A stretch of 55,266 bases of DNA, taken from positions 1 through 55,266 of IMG/VR virus record IMGVR_UViG_3300047560_002167. One strand, written 5' to 3'. The notes beneath the pieces were generated by a model. That model made no database searches and was not told the origin of the DNA. It saw nothing but the letters and a program-made list of their open reading frames with translations. A program made the position numbers and the translations under genes. Below are positions 14,404 through 45,307 of this stretch, piece after piece. The stretch is from a virus. Lineage: Duplodnaviria; Caudoviricetes. The number at the start of each line of letters is the position of its first letter. Positions within the stretch are counted from its first letter, which is position 1.

Positions 14404-14412
14404 GGATTTACA

Positions 14413-14937
14413 ATGTTAACTAATAGCGAATTACAAGTATTACCGGCAATCTCTGACAACGCTACATTTTATGTAGAGTTACAAACGTCAACTGTCGGTT
14501 CTACTGGTTCGCTATACGCAAGTCCTAATCTAACGTTTGTTCCAGCAACAAATACGTTAGGGCTTAACGGAACTGTAAACATCAATGGTTTATCACTAAC
14601 TAATAATACCGCTGAGAAAAGAGTTGCTCCATCAATTATCAACGGTGCTGTCACTTTAAACTTAGCAGATGCTACATTGTTTGATGTATATTTGAACGCA
14701 AGCATTACTCAATTTATTATCTTAAACGTTCAACCCGTAGGTAGAATTAGCTCGTTTGTGTTAGTAGTTACGGCTGACGGTACAACCCGTCCTGTGATTT
14801 GGCCCACTAACTTTAAATGGCCCTCAGGTACAGCACCTACCATCACAACTACTGCCGGTAAAAAAGATGTGTTTTTATTTTTTACAGTTGACGCTGGCTC
14901 AACTTGGCAGTGCTTTATTACTGGACAGAATTTATAA
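14413..14937 (+). CDS. Short fibre/adaptor protein (174 aa)
   Basis: AAGGA SD. The C-terminal domain SFVLVVTADG...WPTNFKWPSGTAPTITTTAGKKDVFLF...TW is a common phage fibre-tip/adaptor signature. Confidence 0.65.
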   Translation: MLTNSELQVLPAISDNATFYVELQTSTVGSTGSLYASPNLTFVPATNTLGLNGTVNINGLSLTNNTAEKRVAPSIINGAVTLNLADATLFDVYLNASITQFIILNVQPVGRISSFVLVVTADGTTRPVIWPTNFKWPSGTAPTITTTAGKKDVFLFFTVDAGSTWQCFITGQNL

Positions 14938-15473
14938 TGGCTAACTATGCACATATTGAAAACAATGAAATTACAGGTGTTTATGATTTAATTCCAGATA
15001 ACTGGAGAAACATAAGCAACTTTTCTGCATTGGATGATATGGCATTCATCCAATCATTGGGCTGGAGAGCAATAGTAAAACAGTTTCCACTCATTGACGA
15101 AAACACCCAAAAATTGGGTAATCCTATATATAGAATTGAAAACGATTCCGTTATAGAAACATACGAGGTAATCACGTTACCTACATATTCTCAACCAGAA
15201 CAAGTTGAGCCAACCGAAGAACAGCTTATTCAGTATAAGATAAATATACATATAAACGCTATGGCTCAATTAAGAATGAAACGAGATACACTTTTACTTG
15301 CCACTGATTATACTCAGTTGGCAGATGTCATGACCCTTAATGGAGAAGAATTGACAGCAGCTTTCAACACATATAGACAAGAGTTAAGAGATTTAACTAA
15401 CCTATATGAAAACGATCCAGAATTCTTGGATGAAAGAACTGTTGTTTATCCTGTTATACCTGGGAGCAATTAA
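14937..15473 (+). CDS. Phage tail (fibre) assembly chaperone (178 aa)
   Basis: The ATG at 14937 overlaps the upstream TAA (TAATG) and is preferred over the TTG at 14904. The C-terminal LRMKRDTLLLATDYTQLAD...YRQELRDL matches the Phage_tail_APC-type motif RxxRDxLLxxxDxTQLxD...YRQxLRD. Confidence 0.75.
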   Translation: MANYAHIENNEITGVYDLIPDNWRNISNFSALDDMAFIQSLGWRAIVKQFPLIDENTQKLGNPIYRIENDSVIETYEVITLPTYSQPEQVEPTEEQLIQYKINIHINAMAQLRMKRDTLLLATDYTQLADVMTLNGEELTAAFNTYRQELRDLTNLYENDPEFLDERTVVYPVIPGSN

Positions 15474-18400
15474 ATGAGCTCCTTAGCATTAAGATTACTT
15501 GCGGCGCAACAGTTTGCGCAGGGTCCTAATACTACCCTCTATATGTGGGGCAATAACTCCTATGGTCAATTGGGGGTATCCAGTGTTAACAGTTATTATA
15601 GCTGGAGTCAATTAAGCAGTGGTGCCTCTCATTCTGTTGCTATTCGTAGTGACGGTTCGTTATTTGCTTGGGGAAACAACACTTCAGGTCAGTTAGGTGA
15701 TGCTACTACTATTAGCAGAAATAGCCCAGTTCAAATTGGTGTTTCAAGTTGGAGTCAAGTAGCTGCCGGCGCATTTCATACTATAGGTATTAAAGTTGAT
15801 GGTACGCTATGGGGTTGGGGCAACAACACATACAATCAATTAAACAACTACTTATTGCCTAATAGCTCATATCCTATATTAATCAGTAGTGATAGTTGGT
15901 CACAAATAAGTGCAGGTGGAATTCACAATTCTGCAATTAAATTAGACGGTAGTCTATGGACTTGGGGTGGTAACACATCGGGTCAGTTGGGTGTAAATAA
16001 TGCATTTACTAAATTTAGTTTAGGCACAGGTCATTATGCTGCTATAAGAGCAGACGGCACATTATGGACCGGCGGCACTAATGCTTCAGGTCAGCTTGGT
16101 GATGGTACTACGGTCGCTAAACTTATCACTGATATTCCTTCTGTACAAATTCCCGGGAGCTGGACTAATGTTATGGCTTCATCGGATCTTACTTTCGCTC
16201 TCCGAGGAGATGGAACGTTGTGGTCATGGGGGGCAAACGGCTTCGGCCAACTAGGCTTAGGGGACACAATTAGTAGAAGTGCTCCGATACAAATTTCAGG
16301 ACAATCTAATATTGTCGAAATAGGAACTGCAATACACGATACTGCGGGCATGACGACATTTTGGAGAGACTCGGCATACAGAGTGTTCGGTGCAGGTTAT
16401 AACACATTAGGTTCCTTAGGAGACGGTACTTTAAGTTCTCGTAGTAGTCCAGTACAAGTAGCATTCCCACCAACACAAGCCGGATTAGGTGCAGGAATAG
16501 GAGTCGGTTCTTCTATCCTTACTAACGGTACTTTGTGGGTATGGGGAACTAATAACTATGGTCAATTAGGAAATAACACAACCGTCAATCAGAGTTCTCC
16601 TATCCAATTGGGAACAGATAAATGGCTTGCTATAGCAGGCAATGACGGTGGATTATACGGGATTAAAGATAACTATACATTATGGTCTTGGGGTAATAAC
16701 ATATATGGACAGTTAGGTGATGGTACTACTATTAGTAGAAGTAGCCCAGTGCAAATTGCAGGTAGCTGGAGTCAAATCATCGGTGGGTACGGATCAACGT
16801 ATGCACTTGATATGAACAACACACTATGGTCATGGGGCCGTAACGATTTAGGCCAATTAGGACAAAACACCACAATTAACAGAAGCAGCCCTATACAAGT
16901 TAGTACAAACCAGTGGAAACAACTTGAATCTGAAACGTATCACGTAATCGGATTGCGAAGTGATAATGCTATATTTACATGGGGTCAAAATCACGTAGGT
17001 CAATTGGGATTAAGTGATACTGTTAATCGCAGTTCACCTACACAAGTTGGCACTAGTTCGTGGAGTCAAATCGCATCTAATGGCACTGGTACATTTGCAA
17101 TTACCGTAGATAATAAATTATTTACATGGGGTGATGGAAGTCAAGGTGACTTAGGTAGCACTGCAACAGTGTCAAGAAGCAGCCCAGTGCAAGTTGGTAC
17201 AAGTAGCTGGACTCAAATAGCTGCGGGTGGCAGAACAGTGATTGCGACTAGATTAGATTACACCTTATGGGCTTGGGGATTTAATTTAAACGGCGAAGTA
17301 GGTGACAACACCGTTATCTTTAGAAGCAGCCCGGTTCAAATCAGTACTAGTAGTTGGATAACTATTCAATCATCAGGCGGCACAAGTTTTGCTGCACGAT
17401 TGGATGGCACATTATGGGCTTGGGGTGGTAACACCACAGGGCAGATAGGTGATACTTCTACTCTCAATAGAAGCAGCCCGGTTCAAGTTTCTATCGGTTC
17501 AGTATTCAAGGGCATGAAGTATTTAGGTGGAGGTTCTCGTGCTTCCGGTGCATTAGACTTTGGTAATAAATTATGGACTTGGGGTATCGGAACAAGCGGT
17601 TCAAGAGGTGATGGTACAACATCTAACAGGGCTATCGCAGTATTGACCATGCAAGATAAACTTTGGAATACTGTAAATTTTGGATGGAACTCAGGAAGAG
17701 GGATTGACTCTAACTATAAACTATGGTCATGGGGACTCAACACTCAAGGTCAGGTGGGCGATGGAACCACAATTGACAGAAGTAGTCCGGTGCAAATTGG
17801 TACAATGAGTTGGTCTACCGTAGCAGCGTCTAGCTCACTGCCCAGTGTCGTGGGTGCAACAGTAGATAATACCTTATGGGGTTGGGGTACCAACCAGTAC
17901 AACGTACTTGGTCTCGGCGAAGCTACTACTATCGCTAGAAGTAGCCCTGTGCAAATTGGCAATCTTGGGCCAGTTGACTTTTTGAAAACTACTACCTCTG
18001 AATTAAGTGTAGCACAAACAAATGGTATATTCTATGCATTAGGTGGACTTAAGGCATCAACTGCATTAGGAATTAGTACCCCTACTATTCTTCCTAACTT
18101 CAATTTACCATATCAACGATTATCAAAAGTTAACAATAGTAGTTATTCATTTGTAAGTGCAGGTAAGGCTCATACTACTGCAATCACAGTAGATAACAAA
18201 CTGTTTACTTGGGGTGACAACTCACAGGGTAAGTTGGGAGATTCTACATTCGTAACACGTAGTTCGCCCGTACAAATTGCAGGTGATTGGAATAAAGTTT
18301 CTGCTGGCGGCAGTCATACACTTGCGATAGATAGTCAATATACATTATACAGTTTTGGTAGTAACTATTCAGGGCAATTGGGAACTAATACAGGCAATTC

Positions 18401-21400
18401 TACACCTACATGGGTTAAACTACATGATGGTGCTAATCATACACTAGCTATCAAGAGTGATAGCACACTGTGGGTATGGGGTAAAAATGATGCAGGTCAA
18501 TTAGGTGACGGTACAGTTATCAACAGAAGTAGCCCGGTGCAAATTGATGGTAGCTGGAATAGTGTCAGTGCAGGACAACGTCATACATTAGCTATTAAAA
18601 CTGATGGTTCATTGTTTGCATGGGGATTCAACGTAACAGGTCAACTAGGTTTGAACTACAACGCACCGAGACTCAAATGGAAATCACTAGCTGCCGGCAC
18701 TTTCGCTGTTGCAATTGCACCTGATGATACATTGTGGACTTGGGGTCTAGGTACTGCTGGACAATTAGCAGATAGTACCATCATAAGTAGAAGTTATCCT
18801 ATACAGATAGGCATTGAAAATACATGGGATCAAATATCAATAGGTTATACTCATGCTATTGCAAAGAAAAAAGACGGTACAGTTTGGACTTGGGGAAGTA
18901 ACGCACACGGGGAATTAGGTGACAACACAATCGCTCCTAAATCTAGTCCTGTGCAGGTACCAGGTTTATCTAATGTACTCAGTGTTGCTGCGGGTGGATC
19001 ACATACTGCTGTTATTACAAGTGACAATAGATTGTTTATGTGGGGTAACAACATAAACGGTGCACTTGGTGATAACTCAACTAGCTACAGAAGTAGCCCA
19101 GTGCAGTTAGGTACTACTGGTATAGCATCGGTTTACTTGCAATTATATACAACTCATTTCTTAACCACTGACAACCGATTATTTGCTATGGGAAATAATA
19201 CTAGTGGTCAGTTAGGAGACAGTACAACATCAAGCAGAAGTAGTCCTGTTCAAGTCGGTGGTAGCTGGAATAATATCGCTTCTGTCTATAATTCTATCTA
19301 TGGTATTAAAACTGATAGTACACTATGGTCGTGGGGTGATAACACGAGCGGTAGACTAGCTCACGGCAATACTAACAACCTTCAAAGCAGCCCTGTACAA
19401 ATCGGTACAAGTAGTTGGAGTCAAGTATCTGCATTTGGAACTACAATGCTTGCTAAACGAATTGACAATACATTGTGGGTTGCAGGTAGTAATATAGGTG
19501 ATGGCACAACGTTCGGTAGAAGCACACCTGTACAACTAACGGGATATAGTGCAGGTAATCTAAGCATAGTACAACCTTCTCAAGTGGTTGATATTTCAGG
19601 CTTTGCTGACCAAAACAATAACATATACGTATGGGGAAACAATAACACAAGCGGTGTGCATGGTGATGGCACTACAATCGCAAAATATATACCTACTCCA
19701 GTATTACAATTTGCAAACGTAAGTAGTCCAACACAAGTAACTACCGGTAGCTGGAGTCAAGTAGCAGCCGGTGCATATCATTCATTGGCTATAAAGAGTG
19801 ATGGTGGCTTATATGGATGGGGTCTCAACGATAGAGGTCAAATTGGCGCAGGTATAGTAAGTGTTATCAATTGGACTAAGATTGTAGGAGACTTAACACA
19901 GACTTATGGTATCAGAAGTGATGGTACATTATGGGGATGGGGTAATAATGCTGCAGGTCAATTGGGACAAACAAACGTCACTAACAGAAGCTCGCCGGTA
20001 CAGATTGGTTTAGGTACGTTCAGTGATGTTGCTTCGGGCGATGCTCACGTTCTTGCAGTTACAACAGATGGTAAGTTATTAGGTTGGGGTAAGAATGACT
20101 ATGGTCAAGCCGGCGCATTAAGCTGGGCGCAAATATCTGCAAGTCAAGACCCCGCACCATTCATGTTTGCTATACGTAGTGACGGTGCATTATTTTCTTG
20201 GGGAAGAAATAACTTTGGTCAATTAGGAGATAGTACTACTACAGATAGAAGTAGTCCTGTTGTACTTGATACTAACAGTTGGTCACAAGTTAGTGCAGGT
20301 GTAAACCACGTATTGGCAAAACGTAATGATGGATTATTGTTTGCATGGGGTTTGAATAATGCAGGTCAACTTGGTGATTTCAGTACAGTAGCTCGTAGTA
20401 GCCCAATTCAAATAGGTAATGCGTATCCATCACTGTCATTTAACGGATCTAACGAATATTATACAGTAGCACCTAACACTACATTGGCGTTTGGTGCAGT
20501 TGATTGGACTATTGAAATGTGGGTGTTCTTGAAAGGGTATGCTGCAACATCTACTACTCTATATGATACTAGACCCGCAGGCACTGGTTCAACTGCAACT
20601 TATCAACTTATCAACATTTCATCAACTGGTTTCATAGGTTATAGTAGTGGTGCAGTTGTTTCTGACGGAATCGCAATTGTTCCATTAAACCAGTGGAATC
20701 ATATTGCAGTGTCTAGACAGGGCTCTAGTACTAGATTGTTCTTAAACGGTGTACAAGTTGGTACTACTATAACTGATTCAGTATCTTACATTGTAGGAGC
20801 TAGTAGACCTATTATTGGTAGTGATGGTAACGTACCGAACAGTGCAGGATACAACTTCAACGGATTGATGAGTAATATTAGAATAGTTAAAGGTGTTGCA
20901 GTATACACCGGTAACTTTACCGTACCTACATCACCATTGGAAGCAACACAATCAGCAGGTACTAATATATCTGCTATTACTGCAGGTCAAACTAGTTTGT
21001 TGACTGGTCAGGGATTGTTTGATAGATCAGGAAATAATTTAACTATCTCTCCGTTTGGAACTGCAACAGCCGCACCAGTGACTCCGTTTGCAAGTGTTGA
21101 CAAATTAGTAGGAAGAAATGTACTTCAATTGTCTGCGGGAGATTCTACTTCAATGGCAATTGGTAGTGACAATACACTCTGGGTGTGGGGGTTAAATGCG
21201 AGTGGGCAGTTAGGACAAAACAATACCGTAAATAGAAGTAGTCCGGTACAAGTTACCGGTAGTTGGTCATCTGTGACTGCATACAGCAGCCATGCAGCAG
21301 CAATTACTACGGATAATAGATTGTTTACGTGGGGCTTAAACACTAGTGGTCAGCTGGGTGTTAACGATGTAGTGACACGTAGTAGCCCTGTACAAGTTGA

Positions 21401-24400
21401 CGGTAGTTGGATTAATGTTGATGTTGGGTTCAATCATACAATTGCAATTACAACGGATAACACGTTATTTACTTGGGGTAATAATCAATTATATCAGTTA
21501 GGTGACACAACTACTATCAATAGAAGTTCACCCACACAAATTGCAGGTAGTTGGAGCATAGTTAAAGCAGGGGCATCAACGTCGGCAGCAATTGATACTA
21601 CGAATAAGTTGTACACCTGGGGTAATAATGCTAGCGGACAATTGGGTGTAGCCCCTATGTCATGGACTATGGCACTAAATCAGGCTATGGTGCGTTCTAA
21701 CGGTGTTGTGTATATTTGGGGTCAAAACGCATACGGTGAAGTTGGTGATGGTACTACTATACAGAGAAGTAGTCCTATTCAACTAGGATCTACAAGCTGG
21801 ACTGTAATTTCTAAAACTGGATATGTTGTAATGGGTATAAAACCTGATTACACATTGTGGGCATGGGGTATAAACAACCTTGGATCATTGGGTGACGGTA
21901 CTACTATCAGTAGAAGCAGCCCAGTTCAAATCGGCATTGATAAGAGTTGGATGAATATTTTTGTAGGTCAAAATCGTAGCTATGCAAAAGATTCAACTGG
22001 AATAATATGGGCCGCGGGCTCTAATGACGCCGGCCAACTAGGCGATGGCACTACAATTGATAGAAGTAGTCCAGTACAAATTAATGCGACCTCTGGATCT
22101 TGGAGTGTTATCTCAGCAGGTGTATCACATACATTAGCACTTGATAGTTTAGGCCAGTTATATGGTTGGGGTAGAAACGTTGAAGGTCAAATCAACAATT
22201 CACCATTAACATTTGCACAGATCGGTAACGGTGTAGCATTACGAGCAGATAATCAACTATGGGTATGGGGTAATAACGGAGGCGGCGCACTAGGTGATGG
22301 CGCAACTGCTAATAGAAGCTCGCCTGTGCAAATTGCAGGATTATGGAAATCTGCACAGTTACGTGGCGCCGCAGCAACTTATCCGGCAGGTAACGGTATC
22401 AGAACTGACGGTACATTGTGGGGTTGGGGTACTAATACATACGGTGGTATCGGAGACAATTCTACAATCAGTAGAAGCAGCCCAGTACAGATCGGCACTG
22501 ATACTAATTGGTTAAGAGTATTTGGTATAGATGACGCTAACTTTGCAATTAAGACAGATTACACCTTATGGGCATGGGGAAACAACAACGCAGGTCAATT
22601 AGCACAAAGTGATACGGTCAATCGTTCAAGTCCAGTACAGATTGCAGGCAGCTGGTCACTTATCTCAGCTAACGGTGGCACTGCATTCGGTATACAAACT
22701 GACGGTACATTATGGGCTTGGGGAGTAAACGCATATGGTGAATTGGGCCAGAATGATAGAGTATACAGAAGTAGCCCAGTACAAGTAGGAACACGTAGCT
22801 GGACGTCAGTTAGTGTAACTTATAATTTAGTAGCTGCTATTAGAAACGACGGCGGATTATTCACATGGGGTCATCCTACAAACGGCTCTATGGGTGATAC
22901 TACAACAATTGATAGAAGTAGTCCAGTTCAACTAGGAACAAGCAGCTGGACACAAGTTGCAACAACACACGGCGGTGTAGCAGCAATTAGATTAGACGGT
23001 GGTGTATTTACATGGGGCTCAGTAACAGGTGTACCAAGTACACTAAGAAGCAGTCCTGTTCAACTAGGAACAAGTAGCTGGACACAAGTGACTAGTGGAT
23101 ACTTTACTATTCATGGGGTGACATCTGATAATAGATTCTTTACATGGTCTACTCAAGGTTATCCACAGGGTGATAACACCACTGTTGCAAAGAGTTCTCC
23201 TGTATTAACTGTAGCTACACAAACTAACTTATCAGCAGTCTTAGTACCAGCGTATTCTATACCTACTCAAATTGGTAATCGCAGTTGGTCATTGATAGCA
23301 GCTGGGTGGCAGCACAGCATCGGGGTAACTACAGATAATACATTGTGGGGTTGGGGTTTAAATACGTATGGTCAAGTAGGTGATACTTCAACTGCAAACC
23401 GCAGCAGTCCTGTACAAGTATCAATTGCAAGTGGATATAGTTGGGCACAGATATCAGCAAACCAATCTGCAACAGCGGCACTAACAACAACTGGAGCATT
23501 ATGGACCTGGGGTATTAACAATGCAGGTCAACTAGGTTTGAACATTGCGAACACTGTGAACAGAAGTTCTCCAGTCCAAGTGGGTACAAGTAGCTGGATT
23601 AGTATATCTACTTCCACAAACAACATGTATGCAGTTGATTTAGCCTATAGACTGTTTACATGGGGTAACGGCGCATTTGGAGCGTTAGGTGATAATCAAA
23701 CAGTATCACGTTCTTCACCTGCATTAGTTGGCACAAACCTTGAAACGTTAATAGTATCACCTGTACAAGTTGGTAATAGTAGCTGGAGTATGTTAGCTGC
23801 TACTGGATACATGATGGCTGGTGTTACATCACCTCCTGCAATATTATATGCATGGGGTGTTAATACATACGGTCAATTAGGTATGGCCGATGCTGTTACT
23901 AGAAGTAGCCCAGTGCAAGTTATTGCAGGTCCGGTAATTCCAAACAGAAGCAGTCCGGTGCAGATAGCATCCGGTAGCTGGAGTCAAGTGACTGCAGGTA
24001 ATAGCTTTAGTGGTGCTATTCGTAGTGATGGTATGTTATTCATGTGGGGTATCAATTCATCAGGACAAATAGGTGATGGTACTACATTGAATAGAAGTTA
24101 TCCTGTTCAAATCAGCACAAGCAGTTGGGTTGAAGTTGGTTCAGGTACATCACATGCTATTGCTACTATGGCTAACAATAGTGTTTGGACATGGGGTAAC
24201 AATCAATATGGACAATTAGGTCAAAATGATAATGCTAACAGAAGTAACCCTATACAAGTAACATCTAGTTCATTCTCTCAAATTTCTTCTGGTGCAAACC
24301 ATGTTGTAGGTTTAATTGGTAATGCTATTTACGGATGGGGCGACAATTCGTTTGGTCAATTAGGAAGATCATTGTCTCCTGTAATCTGGGATACAGTGAT

Positions 24401-35900: not shown

Positions 35901-38900
35901 CTACATCGCAATCATCAGGTACTAACATTAGTTCAGTAACAGACTCACAAACTCAATTGTTAGCATATGCCTCAACTGCGAATGATGCATCAATCTATGG
36001 GCGAACTTTAACACTAACTAATGCCAGTACTACATTCTCGGGACCGTTTAACGAACGATGGTTGCAGGCAGTCGCAAATAACGGCTCAGTGTTTGCACGT
36101 AGAATCGATAACTCTTTCTGGGTATGGGGCAACAACACCGGTGGCGAACTTGGTTTAAATGACGCTATTGCTAGAAGCAGTCCAGTGCAACTTAGTGCAT
36201 TCAGTAAAGAAAGCATCGTTCTAAATAACATAACTATACAACCTAGTATAGGTAATAACAACACTGTGTTATATAACAACGGAGCTGGACTAATGTGGGG
36301 TTATAATGCAGCCGGTGGTATCGGTGATAACACTACAGTCAATAAATCAAACCCAGTTCAAATTGCACCTGATCCCTCACGTTCTAGCCCTGTACAAGTT
36401 GGTACTGATTATTGGACTCAAGTTGTAGGTGGTGCCTATCACTTTATCGGACAACAAACTAATGGTAAACTATATGCCTGGGGTAACAACGCACAGGGAC
36501 AATTAGGTACAGGTGATATTGGTTTCCGTGGTAATCCTACATTAATATCTAATACTCTTTATTCATCAGTTCAACTGTCAGCCGGTGTATCTAGTACATA
36601 TATGAAAAGTACTGGTAAACTATATAGTTGGGGTGGTAATAACTATGGTGAAATGGCTGCGGATAATTCAACTATAGCTAGAAGTAGCATTACACAAGTT
36701 GCAACTAATAGTGTTTACACGTTACAGCAATTCTTCAATGGTTCAAGTTATACACAAGTTGCTAGTTATAATCACACTGGTGCAATCAAAGATGACGGTA
36801 CATTGTGGTTGTGGGGTAGAAACAACAATGGACAACTAGGAGACTTGACTGTTGTAGATAATAATAGCCCAGTACAAATTGCAGGTAGTTGGACACAGAT
36901 TGAAGTCGGCTACTCTACTACGATGGCTCTCAAAACAGATGGTACATTATGGGTTTGGGGTAATAATAGTTACGGACAGTTGGGCCAAGGCCACACTGTT
37001 GCTAGAAGTAGCCCAGTGCAAGTTGCCGGCAGCTGGAATAAGATAGCTGCAACCGGAAACACTGTGTTTGCGATTCGTACAACAGGTACTCTATGGGCAT
37101 GGGGCAACAATACATACGGAGTGTTAGGTTTAAATGATATTGTTCATAGAAGCAGCCCTGTGCAAGTTGCTGGTAGTTGGACTAATATCACTGCACTCGG
37201 TGACAGTATATTTGGTGTTAAAACAGACAACACTTTATTTGCATGGGGTGATAACTCTTCAGGGCAACTAGGTGTTAATGATTTAATTAATCGTAGTAGT
37301 CCAGTACAAGTAGCTAACGCAGGTACTACTGCAGGTGCATTCATCTTACCTAAATCAAATCCAAACCAGAATGGCAACTCAGGCGTAAATGCAACATCAT
37401 TTATTAAAGACAATGTGTTGTATACGATAGGTAACAACGTGCAGGGTCAATTAGGTTTCGGTGCTGTGACTACAGCTTCCAGCCCAGTGCAAGTTGGTAC
37501 TTTTGTTTCAACATACGTTAATAGTCCTATTCAAATAGGTACTGATAGCTGGAGTCAAGTATCAGCAGGTACAGACCACGCGGCAGCTATTTCCCCTGAT
37601 GGAAGATTGTTCACATGGGGTGGTAATGGTTCAGGTCAATTGGGCGGCGGTGGCGGCGAATATCTAAGTATCTCTACTAACGGTAATTCAAGTACTAATA
37701 GCTCAGGTAGTAACTATGGATTCACCGGTTATGTTCGCAGTGACGGAACATTGATGATGGTTGGATTCAATGGTGGTGGACAATTAGGTCAGGGGACCAC
37801 AGGTAATACCTATAGTAGCCCGGTTCAAGTAGGTGCTACTGGATACTGGAAACAAGTATCAGTCGGCGCAGCAAGTGTCACATTAGCAATTGATTATCTA
37901 GGTAGATTGTGGGCGTGGGGTTATAACGTCTGGTCAAACTTGGGTACTAATGATAGTACTAATTACTCTAGCCCGGTGTTAATTGCGGCTACCAACAGTT
38001 GGGTACAAGTAGCAACTGCAACACGTACTTCATATGCTATTGACACTGCTGGCAGATTGTGGGCATGGGGCACTAATACTTACGGTGGTATAGGAGATGG
38101 TACTACAATTAACAAGTCTAGTCCAGTGCAAATTGGAACTGGTACTGATTGGAAGGCAGTGTACAATGGAGCGTGGTCACTACATGTACATGCTATAAAG
38201 AATGATGGTACATTATGGGCTTGGGGATATAATGCCAACGGTCGCTTGGGTGATGGCACTACAGCCCACAAATCTAGTCCTGTACAAATTCCAGGTAGCT
38301 GGACAATGGTAAGTCATAATGGTGAATATTACACTGAAGGTTGGGATAGTTATGGTGTGAAAACCGATGGCACACTTTGGACCTGGGGCTTCCTGGCAAC
38401 GTCAACGACACCAGTGCAACGTTCTAATGCTAGTGTCACAAGTTGGTTAGGTGTATATGGATACATGTATGGTGCATTTGCTTTAGCAAGTGATAATTAT
38501 TTGTATTACATGAACGGAAACAATGACGCTAATACATATTTTAATTGGTCAGGCGCCGCAACCGGTGTTGTAACTCAACCGGTTGCACTTAGTACAAGTG
38601 TAAGTTTCAAGAACATAAACACATGGCAAAACTTTAGACTTGGACAAATATGGCCAACACCTGATAACAAATTATACGTATGGGGTGATAATAGCTCTGG
38701 TTTATTGGGACAGAACGACCAGATTAGCAGAAGCAGTCCTATACAACTAGGTGCAAATCCAAGTGCGTTTACACCCGCGCAAGTAGTATCAGGTAGTTGG
38801 AATCAAGTCAAAGCCAGTTCAAGTCATACAGTTGCGATCAAGAATGATAGCACACTATATGCATGGGGTTTAAATGCATCAGGTCAGTTAGGCACAGGTG

Positions 38901-41900
38901 ACACAGTAAGTCGTTCATCTCCTGTACAATTACCATCTAATACGAATGCGTATGTTAACTCCGTTCAGTTTAGTTCAGGTAATTACACAACTGTACCATA
39001 CAACGCAGCATTCTTGTTATCTGCAAGTAACTTTACGATTGAGGCATGGATATATCCAACTACAACTAGTGTAAGACGAGGTATCGTTAATAACTGGTAC
39101 ATTGGTGGTGAATTCTATTTTGAGATTACTACAGGTAACAACTTGATATTTGGATATACTAACGTTGCATCTGGTATTTCGACTCCTGAATATACTGGTA
39201 GCACTACTATTAATAGTAATGTTTGGACACACGTGGCTATTGTTAGAAACGGCTCAGCCTGGCGTTTCTATATTAATGGTGTAGCTGATGCAACTACATA
39301 TACATCATCAGACACTATGTACTACTATAATGGTACAACAAAGCCTTTGTTAATAGGTGTTGGTTTAGATTACTCCGCACCGTTTACGGGTAAGATTGCT
39401 GGTTTAAGAATAGTTAAAGGTGTTGCTGTATATACTGGTAACTTTACAGTTCCTACAATACCCGCAGCATCGACACAAAGTTCCGGTACTAATATATCTG
39501 CTATTACTGCAGGTCAAACAATCTTATTGACAAACCAAACGATAATATTTGCCGATACTTCTAGTAACAACTGGACTGTTACTCCGACAGGATCACCTGC
39601 AATAGTACCTGCTTCAGAAATATATACAGGTTTAAGTGTCCAGCCGTTATATCAATGGTCTGTTGTTGGTAAAGGTTCCGGATATATAAACTCTGTCGTT
39701 CGTAATGACGGTACATTGTGGAGTACTGGCTTGGGCTCTTCGGGTCAGATTGCTAACGGGACTACAACTACGTATAGTAGTTACGTATCAGTGGGATCTA
39801 CGACAGTTAACTTTAATGCAGCATTAACTAAAGTAGATGACCAGAGTTATACAGTCGCAGCGGCAGGATTCGGTCAATCATTAGCTATTCGCAATGATGG
39901 TACATTATGGGGCTGGGGACTAAATTCACAGAATCAATTGGGATTTGGTCCCGGAGAAGTCTGGACTAATACTACGGGGGGCACATTTCAAGCTGCCGCA
40001 ATGACTTCCTTGGGTAGATTATTTACTTGGGGTGCTAATACATGGGGAAGTGTCGGAGATGGTACTACTACTGCAAGAGCAACACCTCAGTTAATTCCTA
40101 GCTTAATTAGTTGGACGCAAATGTCTGCTTCTGGGGATTCAATGTTCGCTATTAAAGCTGATGGTACATTGTGGGTCTGGGGAGCAAACTACAACGGACA
40201 ATTAGGATTAGGCGACACTGTTTCTAGAAGCAGTCCTGTGCAGTTAGGCTCTTCAACTAACTGGACTAATGTATCTGCAAACAAAGTATATGTTACTGCA
40301 TTAAACTCATTGGGCCAACTATGGGCCTGGGGTGCAAACTCAGGATCAAACTCAACTGGATCATTAGGTGATGGCACTACTATAGATAGAAGTAGTCCTG
40401 TGCAAGTTGCCGGCAGCTGGTCAATTTTAGGTACATATGATGCAGGTGGTTCGGTGTCAGCCACTACATATGCTATTAAACCAGATGGCACTATGTATGC
40501 ATGGGGTAACAACGGTAGCGGGCAATTCGGTGACTCAACAGTAGTTTCTAGGAGTCAACCAACACAAATAGGCATAGGCTATAGCTGGTCTATGGTTGGA
40601 TGTACTAGTCAATCTATGTTAGCACTTCGCTCAGATGGTACATTATGGGTTACCGGTGTTGGGACTAACGGCGTATTAGGCACCAACGAAGTAATTGCTA
40701 GAAGCAGCCCAGTTCAAATCGGCACATCTGCAAGTGGAGCATTAATACAATGGAAATCAATTGGTATAGGTACTAGCTGTGCGGCTGCGATTCGTGCAAA
40801 TGATAATTCATTATGGGCTTGGGGATATAATTTAAACGGCGCATTAGGTGATGGTACTGTCGTGCCTAAGAGTAGCCCAGTGCAAATTGGTCAAAGTCAA
40901 TGGTTAGTAGTATCAGGACTGGGATTTGGACTCCATGGAATCACTATTGATAACACATTGTTCGGTTGGGGCGGATCATATACCGGTAACGGAACAACCA
41001 TTTCTTCTAGTAGCCCGGTTGCAGTTGATAGTACAGGTTTACTGACTGCACCTTATACACTAGTTTCAAGCCCAACACAAATTGCAGGTAGCTGGAATAA
41101 AGTGTCTACTGGATATCATCATACATTGGCAATTAAAGCTGATGGTACACTATGGGCATGGGGAAGTAATAGTGAAGGTCAACTTGGGACTATCACTAAC
41201 ATGACCCTACTAAATCACGGTGCAACGTCATTCGTGAAAGCTGATAATACGCTATGGACATGGGGTAATAACGCTAGTGGTCAAGTAGGTGATGTTACCC
41301 TTGTATCTAGAAGCAGTCCGGTGCAAGTATTTGCTCCTATTAGTTGGAATCAAATTTCAGATTCATACGAAGGTGGCAACGAAGCCGGCGGCGAAATGGG
41401 TAGAGTCGGTGTTGATGCGTACGGATATCTATATGCATGGGGCAAAAATACATACGGTCAATTGGGTACTAACAACACGACTGGTTATAGCACTCCTCAA
41501 AAGATTGGCGTACAACAATGGAAGATATTAGCAACACCGTTTGGTATTAAAGAAGACGGTACGTTGTGGGCTTGGGGATCTAACGGTGACGGCCGTCTAG
41601 GTGACGGTACAACTTTAACCAGAAGCAGCCCTGTACAAATCGGTCTAAGCAGTTGGATGGCTGTATCATCAAATGGTCATGCAATTAGAGTAGATGGTAC
41701 ATTGTGGGGCTGGGGCGAAAATTCAAAAGGCGGCATCGGTGACAACACAACAGTCAACAAGTCTAGTCCAGTTCAGATCGGCACGTTGACCAACTGGAGA
41801 CGAGTGAATGCTAACAAACGTCCTAATTATAGAGAAGCTGGATTTGCAATCAACTCACTTGGCCAGACATTCGGTTTCGGTGAAAACACGTTTGGACAAG

Positions 41901-44900
41901 TGGGTGACAATACTACTATCAATAGAAGTAGTCCTGTACAAATAGGTACTACTGCAAGTTTTGTCTTTATTTCTAGCAATTCACATAGTCTCGCAATTGA
42001 CAATTTAGGACGTTTGTATGGTTGGGGATATAACAGCAACGGTCAAGTTGGTAACGGAGCTGGTGGCCCGACAGGATCATACATATCAAGCCCAGTACAG
42101 ATCGGTACTAGTAGTTGGATAACAGTAGCAGCCGGCTTTGAAACATCTTACGGTATAACTGTAGATGGAACATTATTTGCATGGGGTAACGCAGGATTCG
42201 GAGCATTGGGAACCGGTGACATTATAAAACGTTCAGTGCCTACACAAGTTGGTACTGATACTTGGAAAGAAGTTGCAGGAACTAGCGGGTATACTGGGTA
42301 TGCTGTAAAATCTGACAATTCAGTTTGGTGGTGGGGCGCAGGTCCTTCAACTTCTAGTCCTGTACAAATTTCATCAGCCGCATCAACTAATCCATATTTA
42401 GATATAGTAGCTGATCCTGATAATGGCCCAATCTATGCTATCACAAATAGTAAAACGCTAGTTACATTAACACCAACAACAACGCCGTTTGATGGTGGCA
42501 TTTGGACTAGTGCAGTAAGTATCATTGGCTACAATGCAGCTATCCGTGATGACAAAACGTTATGGATGTGGGGTGCAAATACTCTTGGACAATTAGGTGA
42601 TGGTACTACTATCAACAGAAGCAGTCCAGTACAGGTTCCTGGTAGTTGGAATTTTATATCAGGTAATGGTCAGTCAAGTAATGGCTGGACTGCTGGTATT
42701 AAAACAGATGGTACTCTGTGGATTTGGGGTATGAACTATAACGGATACTTTGGTGATGACACAAGTACAGGTTACAGAAGCAGCCCAGTTCAACTTGGAA
42801 CTAATAGCTGGATTACACTAGCATCTAGTGGTGTAGGTACATTGATTGCGATTGATGCTTCTGGTAAGTTATTTGCATGGGGTTCAAACGCATACGGTCA
42901 GTTGGGCTTAGGCGACCAAGTAACTAGAAGCAGCCCAGTTCAAGTTATGGCAGGTAGAAGTTTCACACAAGTTGCAGCAAATTATTATGCCTCATACGCA
43001 CTAGAGACAACAGGTACATTGTGGGCTATGGGAGTTAATACTGCAGGTTACTTGGGTGATAACACTGTTGTTGCAAAATCAAGTCCAATTCAAGTTAACG
43101 CAAGTAGTTGGGCTACAATTGCCGCAACAGGATTACATGCTATGGGATCTATTATCGTTGACGGTGTAACTACATTATGGACATGGGGTGGAAACACATA
43201 TGGTCAACTTGGATTAGCAGATAAATTAATCTCAGGTGCGATGAGTAGTCCAGTTCAAATTGGCGCAGTCTATGATTCTGACAGAATTCGTTATTCAAGT
43301 CCAGTACAAGTTGGTCTAGGCTATAGTTGGATAAATGTATCAGCTGGGCCATATGCATCAGTAGCAGCAAGACAAGATGGTACTGTTTGGACTTGGGGTA
43401 TGAACTTAGTTGGTCAGTTGGGTGTCAACGATGTTAAGTATCGCAGCAGCCCAGTGCAAGTTGCAGGTACTGCAGCCGGTAGTGTAGTTTCATTGAATCT
43501 TCCTAAGCAAATATCAATGAACGGCGATCCAATCAATGGTGCTGACACTAGTATTTGGATTCAAGGGCGTGATGGTGGATTATATACGAATGGATATAAC
43601 CTATACGGTCAAGTTGGTAATGCAGCAACAGTGACAAGAAGCAGTCCTGTGCAAATCGCAACAACGGCTATGGGTACTAGCCCCATCGTACCGATCAACA
43701 TCACATCTACTAGAGGATCTAGTTTCGTTGCTGTAGGTCACGGCAATGCTGTTGCTGCTATCGCAAGTAACGGCACATTGTGGGCTTGGGGTACTGGCAC
43801 GCAAGGCCAATTAGGCTATAATACTAATGCAACTACATCATTGCAAGTTAGTGTCGGTAACAATCCTCAGTCATACAAAGTAGGAGAGAATTCTATCGGC
43901 GCAAGTAGCTGGAGTCAAATCAGTGCAGGTTACAATCATGCACTAGCAATTGATTCAACTAACAGACTATTCGGCTGGGGCAACTACGCAGCTAAAAATC
44001 CAATTGTAACTTCTACTATGAGTTGGAAGTCATTCATTAACGATACTACTACTATAGCACTTCGTTCAGATGGCACACTATGGGTTTGGGGCTATGGCGG
44101 CACTGGAAGCATGGGTGATAACACTACCGTTAACAAGAGTAGCCCAACACAAGTAGGTACAGACACATGGAATCAAATATCTAATGGTTCAAACCAAGTG
44201 GGTGGTATCAAAACTGATGGTACATTGTGGTTATGGGGATATAACCCATATGGTCAATTAGGAGATAACACAGTAGCAAATAGAAGCAGTCCAGTTCAAG
44301 TTGCTGGCAGCTGGTTATCCCTATCATGCGGCCTTAACAACACTGCAGCCATTAAAACAGACGGAACGTTGTGGCTATGGGGAGACAACACAAACGGTGT
44401 ATTGGGAGACAATACAATTGCCCCTAAATCTAGTCCTGTTAATATCGGCTCTCGTGCAACATGGAAGAAAGCGGTATTATCATCTACTTCATCTTATGCA
44501 ATTGACAACGACGGCAACTTATATGCATGGGGACAAAACACTAACGGTGAATTGGGTTTAAACGACACTGTAAACAGAAGTAGCCCGGTGCAAGTTGGCA
44601 CATCTAAGTGGATTAATATCGCTGCAGGTCTTGGCGGCAGTGGTGGTTTTGCATTAGCATTACGTGCAGATAACACACTATGGGGTTGGGGTTACAACTT
44701 CAACGGCTCAGTAGGTGATTCAACTGGTATTTCTAGAAGCAGCCCGGTACAAGTTGGAACTAGTTTATGGTCTAGTGTGAATTCAGGCCCATTCTATAGC
44801 AGTAGTTTTGCTACTGACATTAATGGAAGATTGTTTGCATGGGGATATAATAGCACCGGTACTGTAGGCAATAGTACTACTGTACCATATCAAAGTCCTG

Positions 44901-45307
44901 TACTAGTAAATGCGTCATATACTTTATTGGGTGTAGGTAACGGTGTCGCCGCAAACGATCCTAATGGATTGTTGTATGCTTGGGGAACTAACACATATGG
45001 TAACTACGGTGACTATTCAGCTATTTCATACTCTTCGCCGGTATTAGTTGTTACTAATACTATTAGTCCAAATACTAGTAGCCCAGTTCAACTAATGAGT
45101 GGATCATGGAGTCATGTAAATGCAGGTAATGACGTTAACCTAGTTGCTGATTCTAACGGGACATTGTATACTTGGGGTAGAAATGACATGCAACAGCTTG
45201 GATTGAATTCTACTAATAGATTTGTCACTAGTCCAGTTGTAATAGGTACCCAAACACGAGACACGGGCGCTGGAAATAACAATTCAGGATACATCAAAAA
45301 TATCTGA
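29936..45307 (+). CDS. Giant RCC1/BLIP-II beta-propeller repeat protein B (5123 aa; two LamG inserts)
   Basis: Uninterrupted 15.4-kb ORF of the same repeats. It starts in an ATGA overlap with MSNNTNRSSLTQI, which is the second half of a repeat. It ends with a first-half repeat, QTRDTGAGNNNSGYIKNI. Confidence 0.93.
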   Translation: MSNNTNRSSLTQIEGKTGAYAISPVSVGSSWKSLSIGSSHAVAIKNDGTLWSWGSNQYGQVGNNTVSIQSSPVQIGTRLWLSASAGANHSMAIRSDGLLFGWGQNSSYQLGNNGLAYSNYWRMASPGYSHTMLIKADGTLWAVGGNTQGQLGNNTVAAVTSPIQIGTSSWSMVTTSTLNTFAIDINGRLFAWGYNLAGDLGLNDVTNKSSPTQIGTSLWTTVATTAGSVSANDAGYAIDINKNLFAWGFGTNGQLGDNTIVSKSSPVFVGANFIKVAATDGAAVAIDGTGNIFTWGKNDLGQLGQNDTISRSAPSQIPSSYVWSNVVTAQNTMFGLTNTGLLLGWGQNTAGIIGDSTNINRSAPVQIMTNVSKLSSKNYLQTSVIDTSGSLWMWGDNTGGQLGDGTTISRSAPVQIGNSKWAAVTSTISGTLGVTTDNKLWAWGKDSGNYELYFTTSDALAATYRSSPVQTGAGLLSDSPVQIGTSSWVSVSAGTDHTLAIRSDKTLWAWGSNLVGQLIAPQFAGQLVSSPTQVGTSSYVTVSAGNSFSLAITSDNKLISAGNNTNNQLGSSTFSNLNTWSKVVESTGHALAISSDGKLFAWGDNTGGQLGDGTTISRSSPVQIGTDTWTNISINSESTTINLASSFAIRADGKLFAWGNNANGQLGQNDLIAKSSPVQVGAGKSFVQVSVGPTFHVVAIDSVGSLWAWGFNTQGQLGTGDTIARSSPVQINSNSWLQVAAGYSYASAIRSDGMLFAWGGNIGGQLGLNDIINRSVMTQIGTSSWSQVFTVQGTGQSGPRLALRSDGTLWGSGYNANGQLGDGTLTNRSSPVQVGTSTWSKVEIHNNATIGIQQDGSLWFWGVKAPVAGSDNATASFTYSWTQVAGGSQNSYAIRADSTLWGWGYNIAGQVGDNTTASRSAPVQITIGSALWKDVTGGGSFAVAINSQNRLFAWGKNDQGQLGINHTNNASSPVQIAAPLSSFSSVNSGYYHSLAIDTAGKLWSWGSNSFRQLGLTDSAYSYLSWSQVSTSASHSMFIRSDGRLFGVGYNGYGALGDGTVVNKSSPVIIGSEKWIDVSAGQRGDGSTANYTIAIRNDGMLFAWGYNLAGELGDITTISRSSPVQLGTSSWIAVASGTSGNYAIRNDNMLFAWGGDAPSTFSGGPVRFYASSSPVQVSTKPYSKIFANPSGSPGSTPITGAYALALDTDNKLWAWGNNSVGQMGRLTYDSWTSVAITNNQSRTMFGIKEDGVLYAWGTDLQSVADYTQTYNGPTLKSSPIVVGNTTPMYTKFASVSGGYSHMYAISTDGKLYGMGVPNVGYGLPDVYSWSQIRSTGITTYAIRNDGLMFAWGRDDYSQMGDFGTVQNRSAPIQIGTLSWSQLATATGQVSSMAAITSDGRLFAWGYNNQGQLGLGDTNGRQSPVQLGVGYSWRSAIVSVNSHVYMRDDGVLFGSGSNTNGVFAAGAAPASLRSSPVQISSTNYNSVVFVAENSTSTTAILAIDKNQNLFTWGSGLYGMLGDGTTINRSSPLQIGTSKWQSVAAGNRTAAAITVDGRLFTWGGDAAYYTLGSNDKSWRLIYSAGSTTFGIDYAQRLWTWGAGSNGISGTGTTTSRSSPVQIGTSSWALVSGSGEHALATTFGGGLWTWGRNIFGALGSANTVDRSSPVQISSASFPVIVAGPYQSSAAIDSLNQLWTWGSNGGVLGDGTTINRSQPVQITGTWADVSIGNSVMYAIRSDRTLWTWGLNTSGQLGLNNANNYSSPVQIGTSSWLMVSAGSKNFVAAIDVNNRLFTWGANVEGELGDNTTVSKSSPVLVSSGTAGAIAFTGSSSIASTSNINLGAGLFTVEGWFYRTSAVGSNTSFWGSTNGTGSTPKIIFNQMNTGELRVWQNDAAVLTTSTTLVPQNTWVHIAVVRDTVAPGAIKIYVNGQLQPSTTNPSGDYSGITGTFNIGADGEGAYSPFPGSISNFRVVTGVAVYTGNFTVPTNVLTTSQSSGTNISSVTDSQTQLLAYASTANDASIYGRTLTLTNASTTFSGPFNERWLQAVANNGSVFARRIDNSFWVWGNNTGGELGLNDAIARSSPVQLSAFSKESIVLNNITIQPSIGNNNTVLYNNGAGLMWGYNAAGGIGDNTTVNKSNPVQIAPDPSRSSPVQVGTDYWTQVVGGAYHFIGQQTNGKLYAWGNNAQGQLGTGDIGFRGNPTLISNTLYSSVQLSAGVSSTYMKSTGKLYSWGGNNYGEMAADNSTIARSSITQVATNSVYTLQQFFNGSSYTQVASYNHTGAIKDDGTLWLWGRNNNGQLGDLTVVDNNSPVQIAGSWTQIEVGYSTTMALKTDGTLWVWGNNSYGQLGQGHTVARSSPVQVAGSWNKIAATGNTVFAIRTTGTLWAWGNNTYGVLGLNDIVHRSSPVQVAGSWTNITALGDSIFGVKTDNTLFAWGDNSSGQLGVNDLINRSSPVQVANAGTTAGAFILPKSNPNQNGNSGVNATSFIKDNVLYTIGNNVQGQLGFGAVTTASSPVQVGTFVSTYVNSPIQIGTDSWSQVSAGTDHAAAISPDGRLFTWGGNGSGQLGGGGGEYLSISTNGNSSTNSSGSNYGFTGYVRSDGTLMMVGFNGGGQLGQGTTGNTYSSPVQVGATGYWKQVSVGAASVTLAIDYLGRLWAWGYNVWSNLGTNDSTNYSSPVLIAATNSWVQVATATRTSYAIDTAGRLWAWGTNTYGGIGDGTTINKSSPVQIGTGTDWKAVYNGAWSLHVHAIKNDGTLWAWGYNANGRLGDGTTAHKSSPVQIPGSWTMVSHNGEYYTEGWDSYGVKTDGTLWTWGFLATSTTPVQRSNASVTSWLGVYGYMYGAFALASDNYLYYMNGNNDANTYFNWSGAATGVVTQPVALSTSVSFKNINTWQNFRLGQIWPTPDNKLYVWGDNSSGLLGQNDQISRSSPIQLGANPSAFTPAQVVSGSWNQVKASSSHTVAIKNDSTLYAWGLNASGQLGTGDTVSRSSPVQLPSNTNAYVNSVQFSSGNYTTVPYNAAFLLSASNFTIEAWIYPTTTSVRRGIVNNWYIGGEFYFEITTGNNLIFGYTNVASGISTPEYTGSTTINSNVWTHVAIVRNGSAWRFYINGVADATTYTSSDTMYYYNGTTKPLLIGVGLDYSAPFTGKIAGLRIVKGVAVYTGNFTVPTIPAASTQSSGTNISAITAGQTILLTNQTIIFADTSSNNWTVTPTGSPAIVPASEIYTGLSVQPLYQWSVVGKGSGYINSVVRNDGTLWSTGLGSSGQIANGTTTTYSSYVSVGSTTVNFNAALTKVDDQSYTVAAAGFGQSLAIRNDGTLWGWGLNSQNQLGFGPGEVWTNTTGGTFQAAAMTSLGRLFTWGANTWGSVGDGTTTARATPQLIPSLISWTQMSASGDSMFAIKADGTLWVWGANYNGQLGLGDTVSRSSPVQLGSSTNWTNVSANKVYVTALNSLGQLWAWGANSGSNSTGSLGDGTTIDRSSPVQVAGSWSILGTYDAGGSVSATTYAIKPDGTMYAWGNNGSGQFGDSTVVSRSQPTQIGIGYSWSMVGCTSQSMLALRSDGTLWVTGVGTNGVLGTNEVIARSSPVQIGTSASGALIQWKSIGIGTSCAAAIRANDNSLWAWGYNLNGALGDGTVVPKSSPVQIGQSQWLVVSGLGFGLHGITIDNTLFGWGGSYTGNGTTISSSSPVAVDSTGLLTAPYTLVSSPTQIAGSWNKVSTGYHHTLAIKADGTLWAWGSNSEGQLGTITNMTLLNHGATSFVKADNTLWTWGNNASGQVGDVTLVSRSSPVQVFAPISWNQISDSYEGGNEAGGEMGRVGVDAYGYLYAWGKNTYGQLGTNNTTGYSTPQKIGVQQWKILATPFGIKEDGTLWAWGSNGDGRLGDGTTLTRSSPVQIGLSSWMAVSSNGHAIRVDGTLWGWGENSKGGIGDNTTVNKSSPVQIGTLTNWRRVNANKRPNYREAGFAINSLGQTFGFGENTFGQVGDNTTINRSSPVQIGTTASFVFISSNSHSLAIDNLGRLYGWGYNSNGQVGNGAGGPTGSYISSPVQIGTSSWITVAAGFETSYGITVDGTLFAWGNAGFGALGTGDIIKRSVPTQVGTDTWKEVAGTSGYTGYAVKSDNSVWWWGAGPSTSSPVQISSAASTNPYLDIVADPDNGPIYAITNSKTLVTLTPTTTPFDGGIWTSAVSIIGYNAAIRDDKTLWMWGANTLGQLGDGTTINRSSPVQVPGSWNFISGNGQSSNGWTAGIKTDGTLWIWGMNYNGYFGDDTSTGYRSSPVQLGTNSWITLASSGVGTLIAIDASGKLFAWGSNAYGQLGLGDQVTRSSPVQVMAGRSFTQVAANYYASYALETTGTLWAMGVNTAGYLGDNTVVAKSSPIQVNASSWATIAATGLHAMGSIIVDGVTTLWTWGGNTYGQLGLADKLISGAMSSPVQIGAVYDSDRIRYSSPVQVGLGYSWINVSAGPYASVAARQDGTVWTWGMNLVGQLGVNDVKYRSSPVQVAGTAAGSVVSLNLPKQISMNGDPINGADTSIWIQGRDGGLYTNGYNLYGQVGNAATVTRSSPVQIATTAMGTSPIVPINITSTRGSSFVAVGHGNAVAAIASNGTLWAWGTGTQGQLGYNTNATTSLQVSVGNNPQSYKVGENSIGASSWSQISAGYNHALAIDSTNRLFGWGNYAAKNPIVTSTMSWKSFINDTTTIALRSDGTLWVWGYGGTGSMGDNTTVNKSSPTQVGTDTWNQISNGSNQVGGIKTDGTLWLWGYNPYGQLGDNTVANRSSPVQVAGSWLSLSCGLNNTAAIKTDGTLWLWGDNTNGVLGDNTIAPKSSPVNIGSRATWKKAVLSSTSSYAIDNDGNLYAWGQNTNGELGLNDTVNRSSPVQVGTSKWINIAAGLGGSGGFALALRADNTLWGWGYNFNGSVGDSTGISRSSPVQVGTSLWSSVNSGPFYSSSFATDINGRLFAWGYNSTGTVGNSTTVPYQSPVLVNASYTLLGVGNGVAANDPNGLLYAWGTNTYGNYGDYSAISYSSPVLVVTNTISPNTSSPVQLMSGSWSHVNAGNDVNLVADSNGTLYTWGRNDMQQLGLNSTNRFVTSPVVIGTQTRDTGAGNNNSGYIKNI
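35390..36055 (+). other. LamG/ConA-like lectin domain inserted between RCC1 blades (protein B, first)
   Basis: FTVEGWFY...NTWVHIAVVR...FPGSISNFRVVTGVAVYTGNFTVPT. Boundaries are approximate. Confidence 0.85.
38942..39652 (+). other. LamG/ConA-like lectin domain inserted between RCC1 blades (protein B, second)
   Basis: NFTIEAWIY...NVWTHVAIVR...FTGKIAGLRIVKGVAVYTGNFTVPT. Boundaries are approximate. Confidence 0.85.

Follow-up and report, generated by a model that had tools for sequence, protein, structure and literature searches.

Propellers built from the RCC1 repeat (PF00415), such as those of RCC1, UVR8, and the RCC1-like domains (RLDs) of HERC proteins, are known as single or tandem separate rings. 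Integrin alphaM offers a propeller of another kind (7p2d_A), which carries an inserted I domain located between blades, and in the case of Sec13, Nup145C or Sec31 supplies the blade that makes the propeller complete. There are, in other words, precedents for RCC1 rings and tandem RLDs as well as for domain insertion in propellers and the completion of a propeller in trans. Among phages, phAPEC6 encodes eleven RCC1-like proteins for which the role is given as unknown (PMC7247149). Here we analyze a 55-kb piece of a virus record (IMGVR_UViG_3300047560_002167, Caudoviricetes; 55,266 nucleotides, hereafter the window), in which two long open reading frames (ORFs), genes A and B, occupy positions 15474–45307 and consist almost wholly of RCC1 repeats, plus three Laminin_G_3 (LamG) inserts. 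We consider it likely that A and B make up a single giant assembly with branches, built from 26 RCC1 propellers of seven blades each and three LamG domains, in which propellers are nested within propellers and two chains donate strands to one another.

Of the known systems, the locus shares its repeat motif with the RCC1, UVR8, and HERC propellers, as well as the fold of the one child propeller that was modeled (Z 31–37.6 to UVR8, HERC1/2, RPGR, and RCC1), whereas 25 of its 26 rings would be placed inside a blade or between blades of a further ring, at depths of up to six levels counted from the root. The modeled parent propeller in the window resembles that of integrin alpha in having a folded domain within a loop, after which the seven-bladed ring continues; however, what is inserted here belongs to the same propeller family as its host, and insertion recurs from level to level. 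Sec13 receives a whole blade, donated one way, whereas in the window single strands would swap both ways between chains encoded by coupled genes. The phAPEC6 phage likewise has RCC1-like proteins, but its description in PMC7247149, as far as it deals with these proteins, gives no nesting. A full-text literature search for nested or inserted propellers of the RCC1 family returned nothing relevant (supplements and most subscription journals lay outside its scope), and we found no published description of nested RCC1 propellers.

A bracket grammar in the RCC1 repeats

A blade hidden Markov model (HMM) of 49 positions, with the consensus GTGSWTSVAAGGSHTLAIRTDGTLWAWGNNTSGQLGDNTTVNRSSPVQI, was built from the window sequence itself, and the elements of the blade were named W (SWxxVSAG), H (HTLAI), C (LWAWG), G (NxxGQLG), and P (SSPVQI). 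Genes A and B together hold 182 RCC1 blades, comprising 179 core matches to this HMM and three degenerate blades read by eye. The Pfam family PF00415 gives 151 matches at E <= 0.001 in the frames of A and B (3 of the 150 listed fall below the gathering cut-off). The distance from the GQLG hairpin of one blade to the W strand of the next falls into three classes, namely 0–12 residues with no P strand, 15–25 residues with one, and 27–37 residues with two. A junction lacking P was read as an opening bracket (open), and a junction with two P strands as a closing bracket (close). The WG-to-WG distance was dropped as the sole junction classifier, as it is blurred by loop insertions, and the hairpin-to-W distance was used instead.

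When these junction calls were passed to a stack parser, 23 closed groups were obtained, 21 of them with 7 blades and 2 with 14, and the blades that remained as the root numbered exactly 7. In this parse all 182 blades are assigned to 26 propellers, and the nesting reaches a depth of 6, and no more, in each gene. About one-fifth of the junctions are ambiguous by motif, and robustness was examined with 35 of the 182 left ambiguous under the constraint that closed groups contain 7 or 14 blades and the root 7. The real junction order then has 8 valid parses, all of one topology; the sole difference among them is whether or not three bracket pairs count as 14-blade blocks. By comparison, none of 3000 shuffled orders with the same 35 ambiguous junctions gave a valid parse. 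The bracket pattern is thereby confirmed as real and lies far beyond chance. The nested parse proposed in the initial annotation of this DNA is borne out by these independent calls, which leave as the root precisely the segments between 15534 and 45304 that it had assigned to a seven-bladed ring.

The blades show only a weak register between propellers. Specifically, the best match in another propeller occupies the same position for 23 of the 182 blades (26 expected), and the in-register alignment is the best offset in 74 of 325 propeller pairs (46 expected). This pattern does not amount to evidence for recent copying of whole cassettes.

The root propeller and the split between genes A and B

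In A, the root starts with a blade's third strand, and in B it stops once the second has been reached, the C-terminal TQTRDTGAGNNNSGYIKNI (45248–45304) representing the first two strands of its closing blade. The first positions of the six other root blades are 30020, 30161, 31388, 31538, 43898, and 45098, and the root coordinates given earlier all translate as claimed (Table 1). In what PMC8773251 says of the alsin RLD, the first blade draws strands one and two from the domain's C-terminal section and strands three and four from its N-terminal section. The root termini are in line with this 2+2 closure of RCC1-like domains, as the initial annotation had proposed.

If blades are grouped as W-H-C-P, children would sit between the C/G elements and the P strand of a parent blade, starting with W, ending with P, and having no closure of their own, so that 2+2 closure would occur in the root only. 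If a blade is instead P-W-H-C, the children would lie between blades with 3+1 closure, and the tree and the counts would be unchanged. In the first of these groupings, most propellers would be inserted in a parent blade after the third strand, between the GQLG hairpin and the SSPVQI fourth strand, a position at which the two ends of the child meet on the sheet of the parent; two children appear to sit between blades rather than inside one. In the resulting tree, four children would branch from the root and the deepest level would be 6, with the classical RCC1 closure used by the root alone.

The junction between A and B falls within a blade, between the hairpin and the last strand of the final blade of A, and B lies in the -1 frame relative to A. 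Gene A ends with GQLGDGT and its stop codon, and B begins with MSNNTNRSSLTQI. No slippery heptamer of the form X XXY YYZ precedes the stop in CTT GGG GAT GGT ACA TGA, and translation in the B frame upstream of the ATG gives no RCC1 sequence. ATGA and TAATG overlaps are the usual form of coupled stop-restart junctions, and the A/B split looks like one of these. The initial annotation had treated the root as one chain able to fold only after all else had been synthesized. This does not agree with the observation that A stops and B starts in another frame inside a blade, at an overlap that is conserved in a relative (see below).

Because the split lies inside a blade, the root would obtain its N-terminal strand from A and the rest from B, and its closure would be intermolecular. 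We infer that the root and the first child of A are both closed by strands swapped between the two polypeptides. Protein A would donate its N-terminal strand to the closing blade of the root in B, while B would donate its first strand to the last blade of the top propeller of A, and the two chains would be locked together by this reciprocal donation. A complex prediction joining A 1–42 with B 14–118, 471–579, and 4641–5123 reached an interaction prediction score from aligned errors (ipSAE) of 0.52, compared with 0.01 for the best of the controls, one of which had the C-terminal B fragment replaced; this counts as weak support, and the job is unlike those used in calibration. In that calibration, 51 of the 78 solved complexes attained the ipSAE mark, as did 2 of the 108 mismatched pairs, and values of 0.60 or under comprised only 5 of those 78 complexes and all 4 of the mismatches that passed (of 180). 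Contact agreement in the docking runs was at least 88%, with a partner pLDDT (predicted local distance difference test) of at least 57. The docking pass of the root fragments may stem from their likeness to solved RCC1 rings.

Fold of one parent-plus-child unit

Residues 2060–2753 of A (694 aa), a depth-5 parent of 3.5 + 3.5 blades around a depth-6 child of seven blades, were folded by AlphaFold2 (AF2) with a 91-sequence alignment, giving a pLDDT of 85.2 and a predicted template modeling score (pTM) of 0.60. Apart from the first 8 residues, confidence falls below 50 only at residues 183–191 and 522–538, which are the two bracket junctions. Structural comparison with VIA-align placed whole RCC1-type rings on model residues 192–534 (49 of 50 rows in one listing and 47 of 50 in the other). 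The best match to this child ring is UVR8 (8gqe_B; Z 37.6, root-mean-square deviation (rmsd) 2.9, 327 residues aligned), and HERC2 (3kci, Z 35.6) and RCC1 (1a12, Z 31.6) also match, so that this one child is, in the model, a closed ring of seven blades. The entry 3jrp, "SEC13 with NUP145C insertion blade", appeared among the structural matches of the unit as well.

The flanks of the child also appear to come together as a ring. Specifically, 3 of 50 rows span the model from residue 1–2 to residue 686–694 against whole seven-bladed propellers, namely phiKZ gp131 (4gbf_B; Z 16.8, rmsd 3.8, 251 aligned), integrin alpha6 (7cec_A; Z 13.4, rmsd 4.4, 248 aligned), and integrin alphaM (7p2d_A; Z 13.2, rmsd 4.5, 249 aligned). 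As each flank has only ~170 residues, some 250 aligned residues require both. Within the 14-blade unit, the ring is thus formed by blades 5–11, with the flanks jointly matching a ring, and not by consecutive sevens from the start of the unit. A complete ring inside the brackets excludes the tandem register (1–370 and 370–694) for this model.

A relative with the same root and the same split

A related locus, G002 (L091 and L092), was located via its fiber gene, which is 70% identical to that of the window, and contains three RCC1 ORFs of 3286, 3105, and 5117 aa. The order of chaperone and then RCC1 genes is the same as in the window. Within the RCC1 interior the two loci are 32–40% identical, which is no more than the identity between blades. 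The first 580 aa of B run colinear with ORF3 (48% identity), and the three brackets they contain are all retained; the last 464 aa of B are 42% identical to G002, and residues 1–470 of A are 44% identical to ORF1. The relative keeps the same root as the window phage. At the junction of ORF2 and ORF3, the sequence ACATGAGT is identical to that at the A/B junction, and the same ATGA overlap between proteins that are at most 48% identical indicates that the split is not a sequencing error. Neither G002 stop is preceded by a slippery heptamer of the form given above.

ORFs 1 and 2 of the relative (113 blades) have a valid parse, in which one group requires 21 blades, while none of 2000 shuffled orders could be parsed; G002 as a whole has no valid parse. 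ORF3 parses almost anywhere once one blade is added, which makes this parse uninformative. One child has 14 blades in the window and apparently 7 in G002, judging from hand-read junctions of which the closing one is ambiguous. Colinearity of A with ORF1 extends only to about residue 470, and the extra 7 blades therefore seem to lie between two blades. We also observed that ORF1 and ORF2 meet in a TAATG overlap exactly at an opening bracket, so that one propeller there would comprise three chains. A scan of viral contigs with the chaperone as query found no relative, and RCC1 genes lie downstream in only 3 of 80 loci that carry the neighboring fiber gene.

Alternative explanations

The arrangement most often seen in the family is an array of beads on a string, in which consecutive sets of seven blades would close their own rings and the junction lengths would reflect loop variation. 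Most homologues of 750, 1100, 1450, and 1800 aa show unbroken regular junctions, a start at the third strand, and an end after the second, and seamless tandem arrays are thus the common form. For A and B, however, such an array is at odds with the 7 or 14 blades found in all 23 groups, with the failure of every shuffled order to parse, and with an AF2 ring that lies at 192–534 rather than at 1–370 and 370–694; we regard it as very improbable here. A second possibility retains the nesting and takes A and B as one chain of 9,944 residues, produced by a programmed -1 frameshift or read-through, or divided only by an assembly error. That the blade continues over the junction, from GQLGDGT and the stop to the start of B in the -1 frame, is in keeping with this idea. 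Nonetheless, an identical ATGA overlap in proteins as diverged as those of G002 rules out sequencing error, the slippery heptamer is absent, and the reading frame of B loses its RCC1 character upstream of the ATG. Moreover, the second split in the relative is of the TAATG type, and both overlaps have the form generally known from coupled stop-restart. A single chain is accordingly judged unlikely.

It could also be that the brackets are scars of past cassette insertions and that only the leaf and low-level propellers fold, with the upper parents and the root left open or disordered. In favor of this reading are the degenerate state of two root markers, the weak complex prediction, and the coverage of a depth-5 parent, not an upper one, by the AF2 model, yet every level including the root keeps exactly 7 blades, and the root blades, the brackets, and both termini are retained in G002 at 42–48% identity. 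This conservation of the sevens and of the root is hard to explain without selection for ring closure, and we view a set of scars as rather unlikely.

A nested assembly of two chains that exchange strands is thus the explanation we favor, and several observations weigh against it. Some junctions, including two in the root, are ambiguous by motif and were settled through the grammar itself; the root markers concerned, a spare strand at 43859–43897 and the open junction after 43898–44005, were fixed in this way and not by motif. ORF3 of the relative does not parse as tokenized, its 96 blades being one short of 6+7k. The strand grouping W-H-C-P was borrowed from what the alsin RLD review (PMC8773251) says of this domain and not from the AF2 model. 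The model itself covers 1 of 25 parent-child junctions, its closure of the parent relies on 3 rows whose aligned ranges give just the first and the last residue, the alignment supplied to AF2 contained nested homologues that may have guided it, and a single-sequence AF2 run on the same unit gave a pLDDT of 41.9. Finally, presence on the virion and an adhesin function are argued from gene context, namely the fiber, tail-fiber-like, and chaperone genes upstream.

Bracket patterns in the wider RCC1 family

A survey of the family, in which crude junction thresholds were applied, included 229 homologues of 586–1868 aa. Most of these are unbroken tandem arrays of 2–5 rings; 34 contain at least one unit of an opening bracket, 7 blades, and a closing bracket, and of the 74 simple bracket groups, 45 contain exactly 7 blades. 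Two homologues of about 1,099 aa, P0231 and P0057, show the crude pattern (bbb(bbbbbb)bb)bbbbbbb, in which b stands for a blade. At the upper end of the size range, 730 proteins of 2651–8437 aa match at E <= 1e-50. Bracket units of 7 blades are present in 56 of the 119 giant homologues parsed (from 120 listed), and 80 of their 137 simple groups hold 7. Judged from these sequences, the nested architecture is not unique to this phage. A crude parse suggests about 10–11 levels of nesting in P0235 (5840 aa) and P0236 (7937 aa), with a regular doll-in-doll pattern about 11 deep and the child in blade 5 at each level in P0235, and with a LamG-sized insert at most levels in P0236. For P0235, the deepest homologue, the crude stack parse closed only 6 of 12 groups at 7 blades.

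Short single-propeller phage genes, for which the initial annotation had proposed a search, do occur. In S-SRM01, a cultured freshwater cyanophage of Synechococcus, RCC1 genes of 344, 405, and 393 aa directly follow the distal subunit gene of the long tail fiber. Two of the three, those of 344 and 405 aa, were translated, and each encodes one propeller whose first element is C and whose last is H. The RCC1 genes of the window lie in the same tail-fiber module but differ from these single propellers in their nesting. The initial annotation had further derived the locus from one ordinary RCC1 gene of ~370 aa by repeated internal insertion. Insertion of whole seven-blade cassettes is plausible in light of the single-propeller cyanophage genes, the existence of homologues of 2, 3, 4, and 5 propellers both with and without nesting, and the child with apparently 7 blades in G002 against 14 in the window; an order of insertions and a single ancestor of that size find no support, the register between propellers being weak.

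With respect to significance, domain insertion usually goes one level deep, whereas the grammar, the relative, and one confident model suggest here that one fold recurs within itself, down to six levels under the root. If this is correct, the product would be a branched body of ~1 MDa and not beads on a string, and, since no parent could close until its children had folded, nature would here put co-translational folding to an extreme test. It would also provide a case of a propeller split between genes and rejoined by strand swapping. The underlying rule (missing or spare SSPVQI strands and sets of seven) would allow architecture to be read from giant "RCC1 family" proteins that are now annotated merely as repeats, and would suggest how cyanophage fibers show many domains of sugar-binding type in a compact bush. 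More broadly, there may exist a class of self-similar tree proteins, a proposal to which we give somewhat less than an even chance. In such proteins, a cassette of 7 RCC1 blades would have been inserted repeatedly into a single specific loop of propellers like itself, giving trees of between 6 and more than 10 levels in many phage fiber genes, with split chains rejoining by single-strand swaps and the outermost ring closing across 30 kb.

Genomic context and additional features

The neighboring genes place A and B downstream of tail-fiber genes, and the assembly probably sits on the virion as a fiber or adhesin that displays propeller and LamG modules, a view drawn from this context. The fiber gene of the window is 46–50% identical to "fibre/virion structural" proteins of T4-like cyanophages of Synechococcus. 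A Megablast search of the upstream genes against phages gave no match. Downstream of B are methyltransferase-like genes, a 2-oxoglutarate (2OG) oxygenase, and the large subunit of ribonucleotide reductase.

Table 1. Features of the RCC1 locus and of adjoining genes (window coordinates)
Feature	Position	Strand	Remarks
1063-aa fiber/virion structural protein and 174-aa protein with tail-fiber-like C-terminus	11212..14937	+	Upstream context
189-aa tail-fiber assembly chaperone-like gene	14904..15473	+	Phage_tail_APC, PF16778, E 4.7e-10; abuts gene A
Gene A	15474..29939	+	4821 aa; 92 blades, one LamG domain; 19-residue N-terminal segment, then root N-terminal strand and GQLG hairpin, then first root child with all descendants
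TLYMWGNNSYGQLG	15534..15575	+	Third strand and hairpin of root closing blade; W strand directly after, no SSPVQI (open junction)
LamG insert	20415..21116	+	Laminin_G_3, E 2.7e-15; between two blades
Unit folded by AF2	21651..23732	+	A 2060–2753
Gene B	29936..45307	+	5123 aa; 90 blades, two LamG domains; six root blades, 3 of 4 strands of root closing blade, three more child trees
ATGA overlap	29936..29939	+	TGA stop of A overlaps ATG start of B; B in -1 frame
NRSSLTQIEG	29951..29980	+	First strand of protein B; read as missing last strand of A's final blade, in trans
YAISPVSVG	29993..30019	+	Spare strand closing bracket opened at 15575; read as fourth strand of root closing blade
Root blades 2 and 3	30020..30277	+	Blade 3 open, without last strand
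Seven-blade child in root blade 3	30278..31360	+	Bracket positions kept in G002
Spare strand LSDSPVQIG, root blades 4 and 5	31361..31663	+	Strand closes root blade 3; blade 5 open
Child tree in root blade 5	31664..43858	+	77 blades, 11 propellers, depth to 6, two LamG domains
LamG insert	35375..36055	+	E 1.7e-20; between two blades
LamG insert	38933..39652	+	E 9.9e-22; between two blades
Weak spare strand NNPQSYKVGENSI (43859–43897), root blade 6	43859..44005	+	Strand closes root blade 5; blade 6 open, degenerate hairpin
Seven-blade child in root blade 6	44006..45064	+	
Spare strand (SSPVQL), root blade 7, C-terminal half blade TQTRDTGAGNNNSGYIKNI	45065..45304	+	Strand closes root blade 6

All three LamG inserts are placed between the P strand of one blade and the W strand of the next, that is, between blades, and pass the cut-off of 27.6 bits for PF13385 (Laminin_G_3/concanavalin A-like lectin) with 57.3, 74.1, and 78.1 bits. 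They have in common the motif VKGVAVYTGNFTVPT, followed by an SGTNIS...T stretch. Upstream of the RCC1 genes, an ORF of 1873 aa (1554–7175, + strand) contains seven Laminin_G_3 stretches (E 2.9e-120) and has matches to PHROGs whose annotation is baseplate wedge subunit or virion structural protein, making it a second giant lectin-type repeat protein of the same module. Between this protein and the fiber protein lies an ORF of 1321 aa (7201–11166, + strand) with no Pfam or PHROG match at the thresholds used.

A truncated protein of 3583 aa (P0234), from another contig of 38.7 kb, shows 100% identity across 74% of gene A, which indicates that this phage or a very close one has been assembled more than once. 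An antisense ORF of 164 aa within gene A (25871–26365, - strand) has most likely arisen by chance, as an open frame within repetitive sequence. GC skew is 0.09–0.17 over both RCC1 genes (window positions 16001–46000) versus about 0–0.07 in the upstream genes, and the raised values probably reflect the glycine- and tryptophan-rich repeat, not replication.

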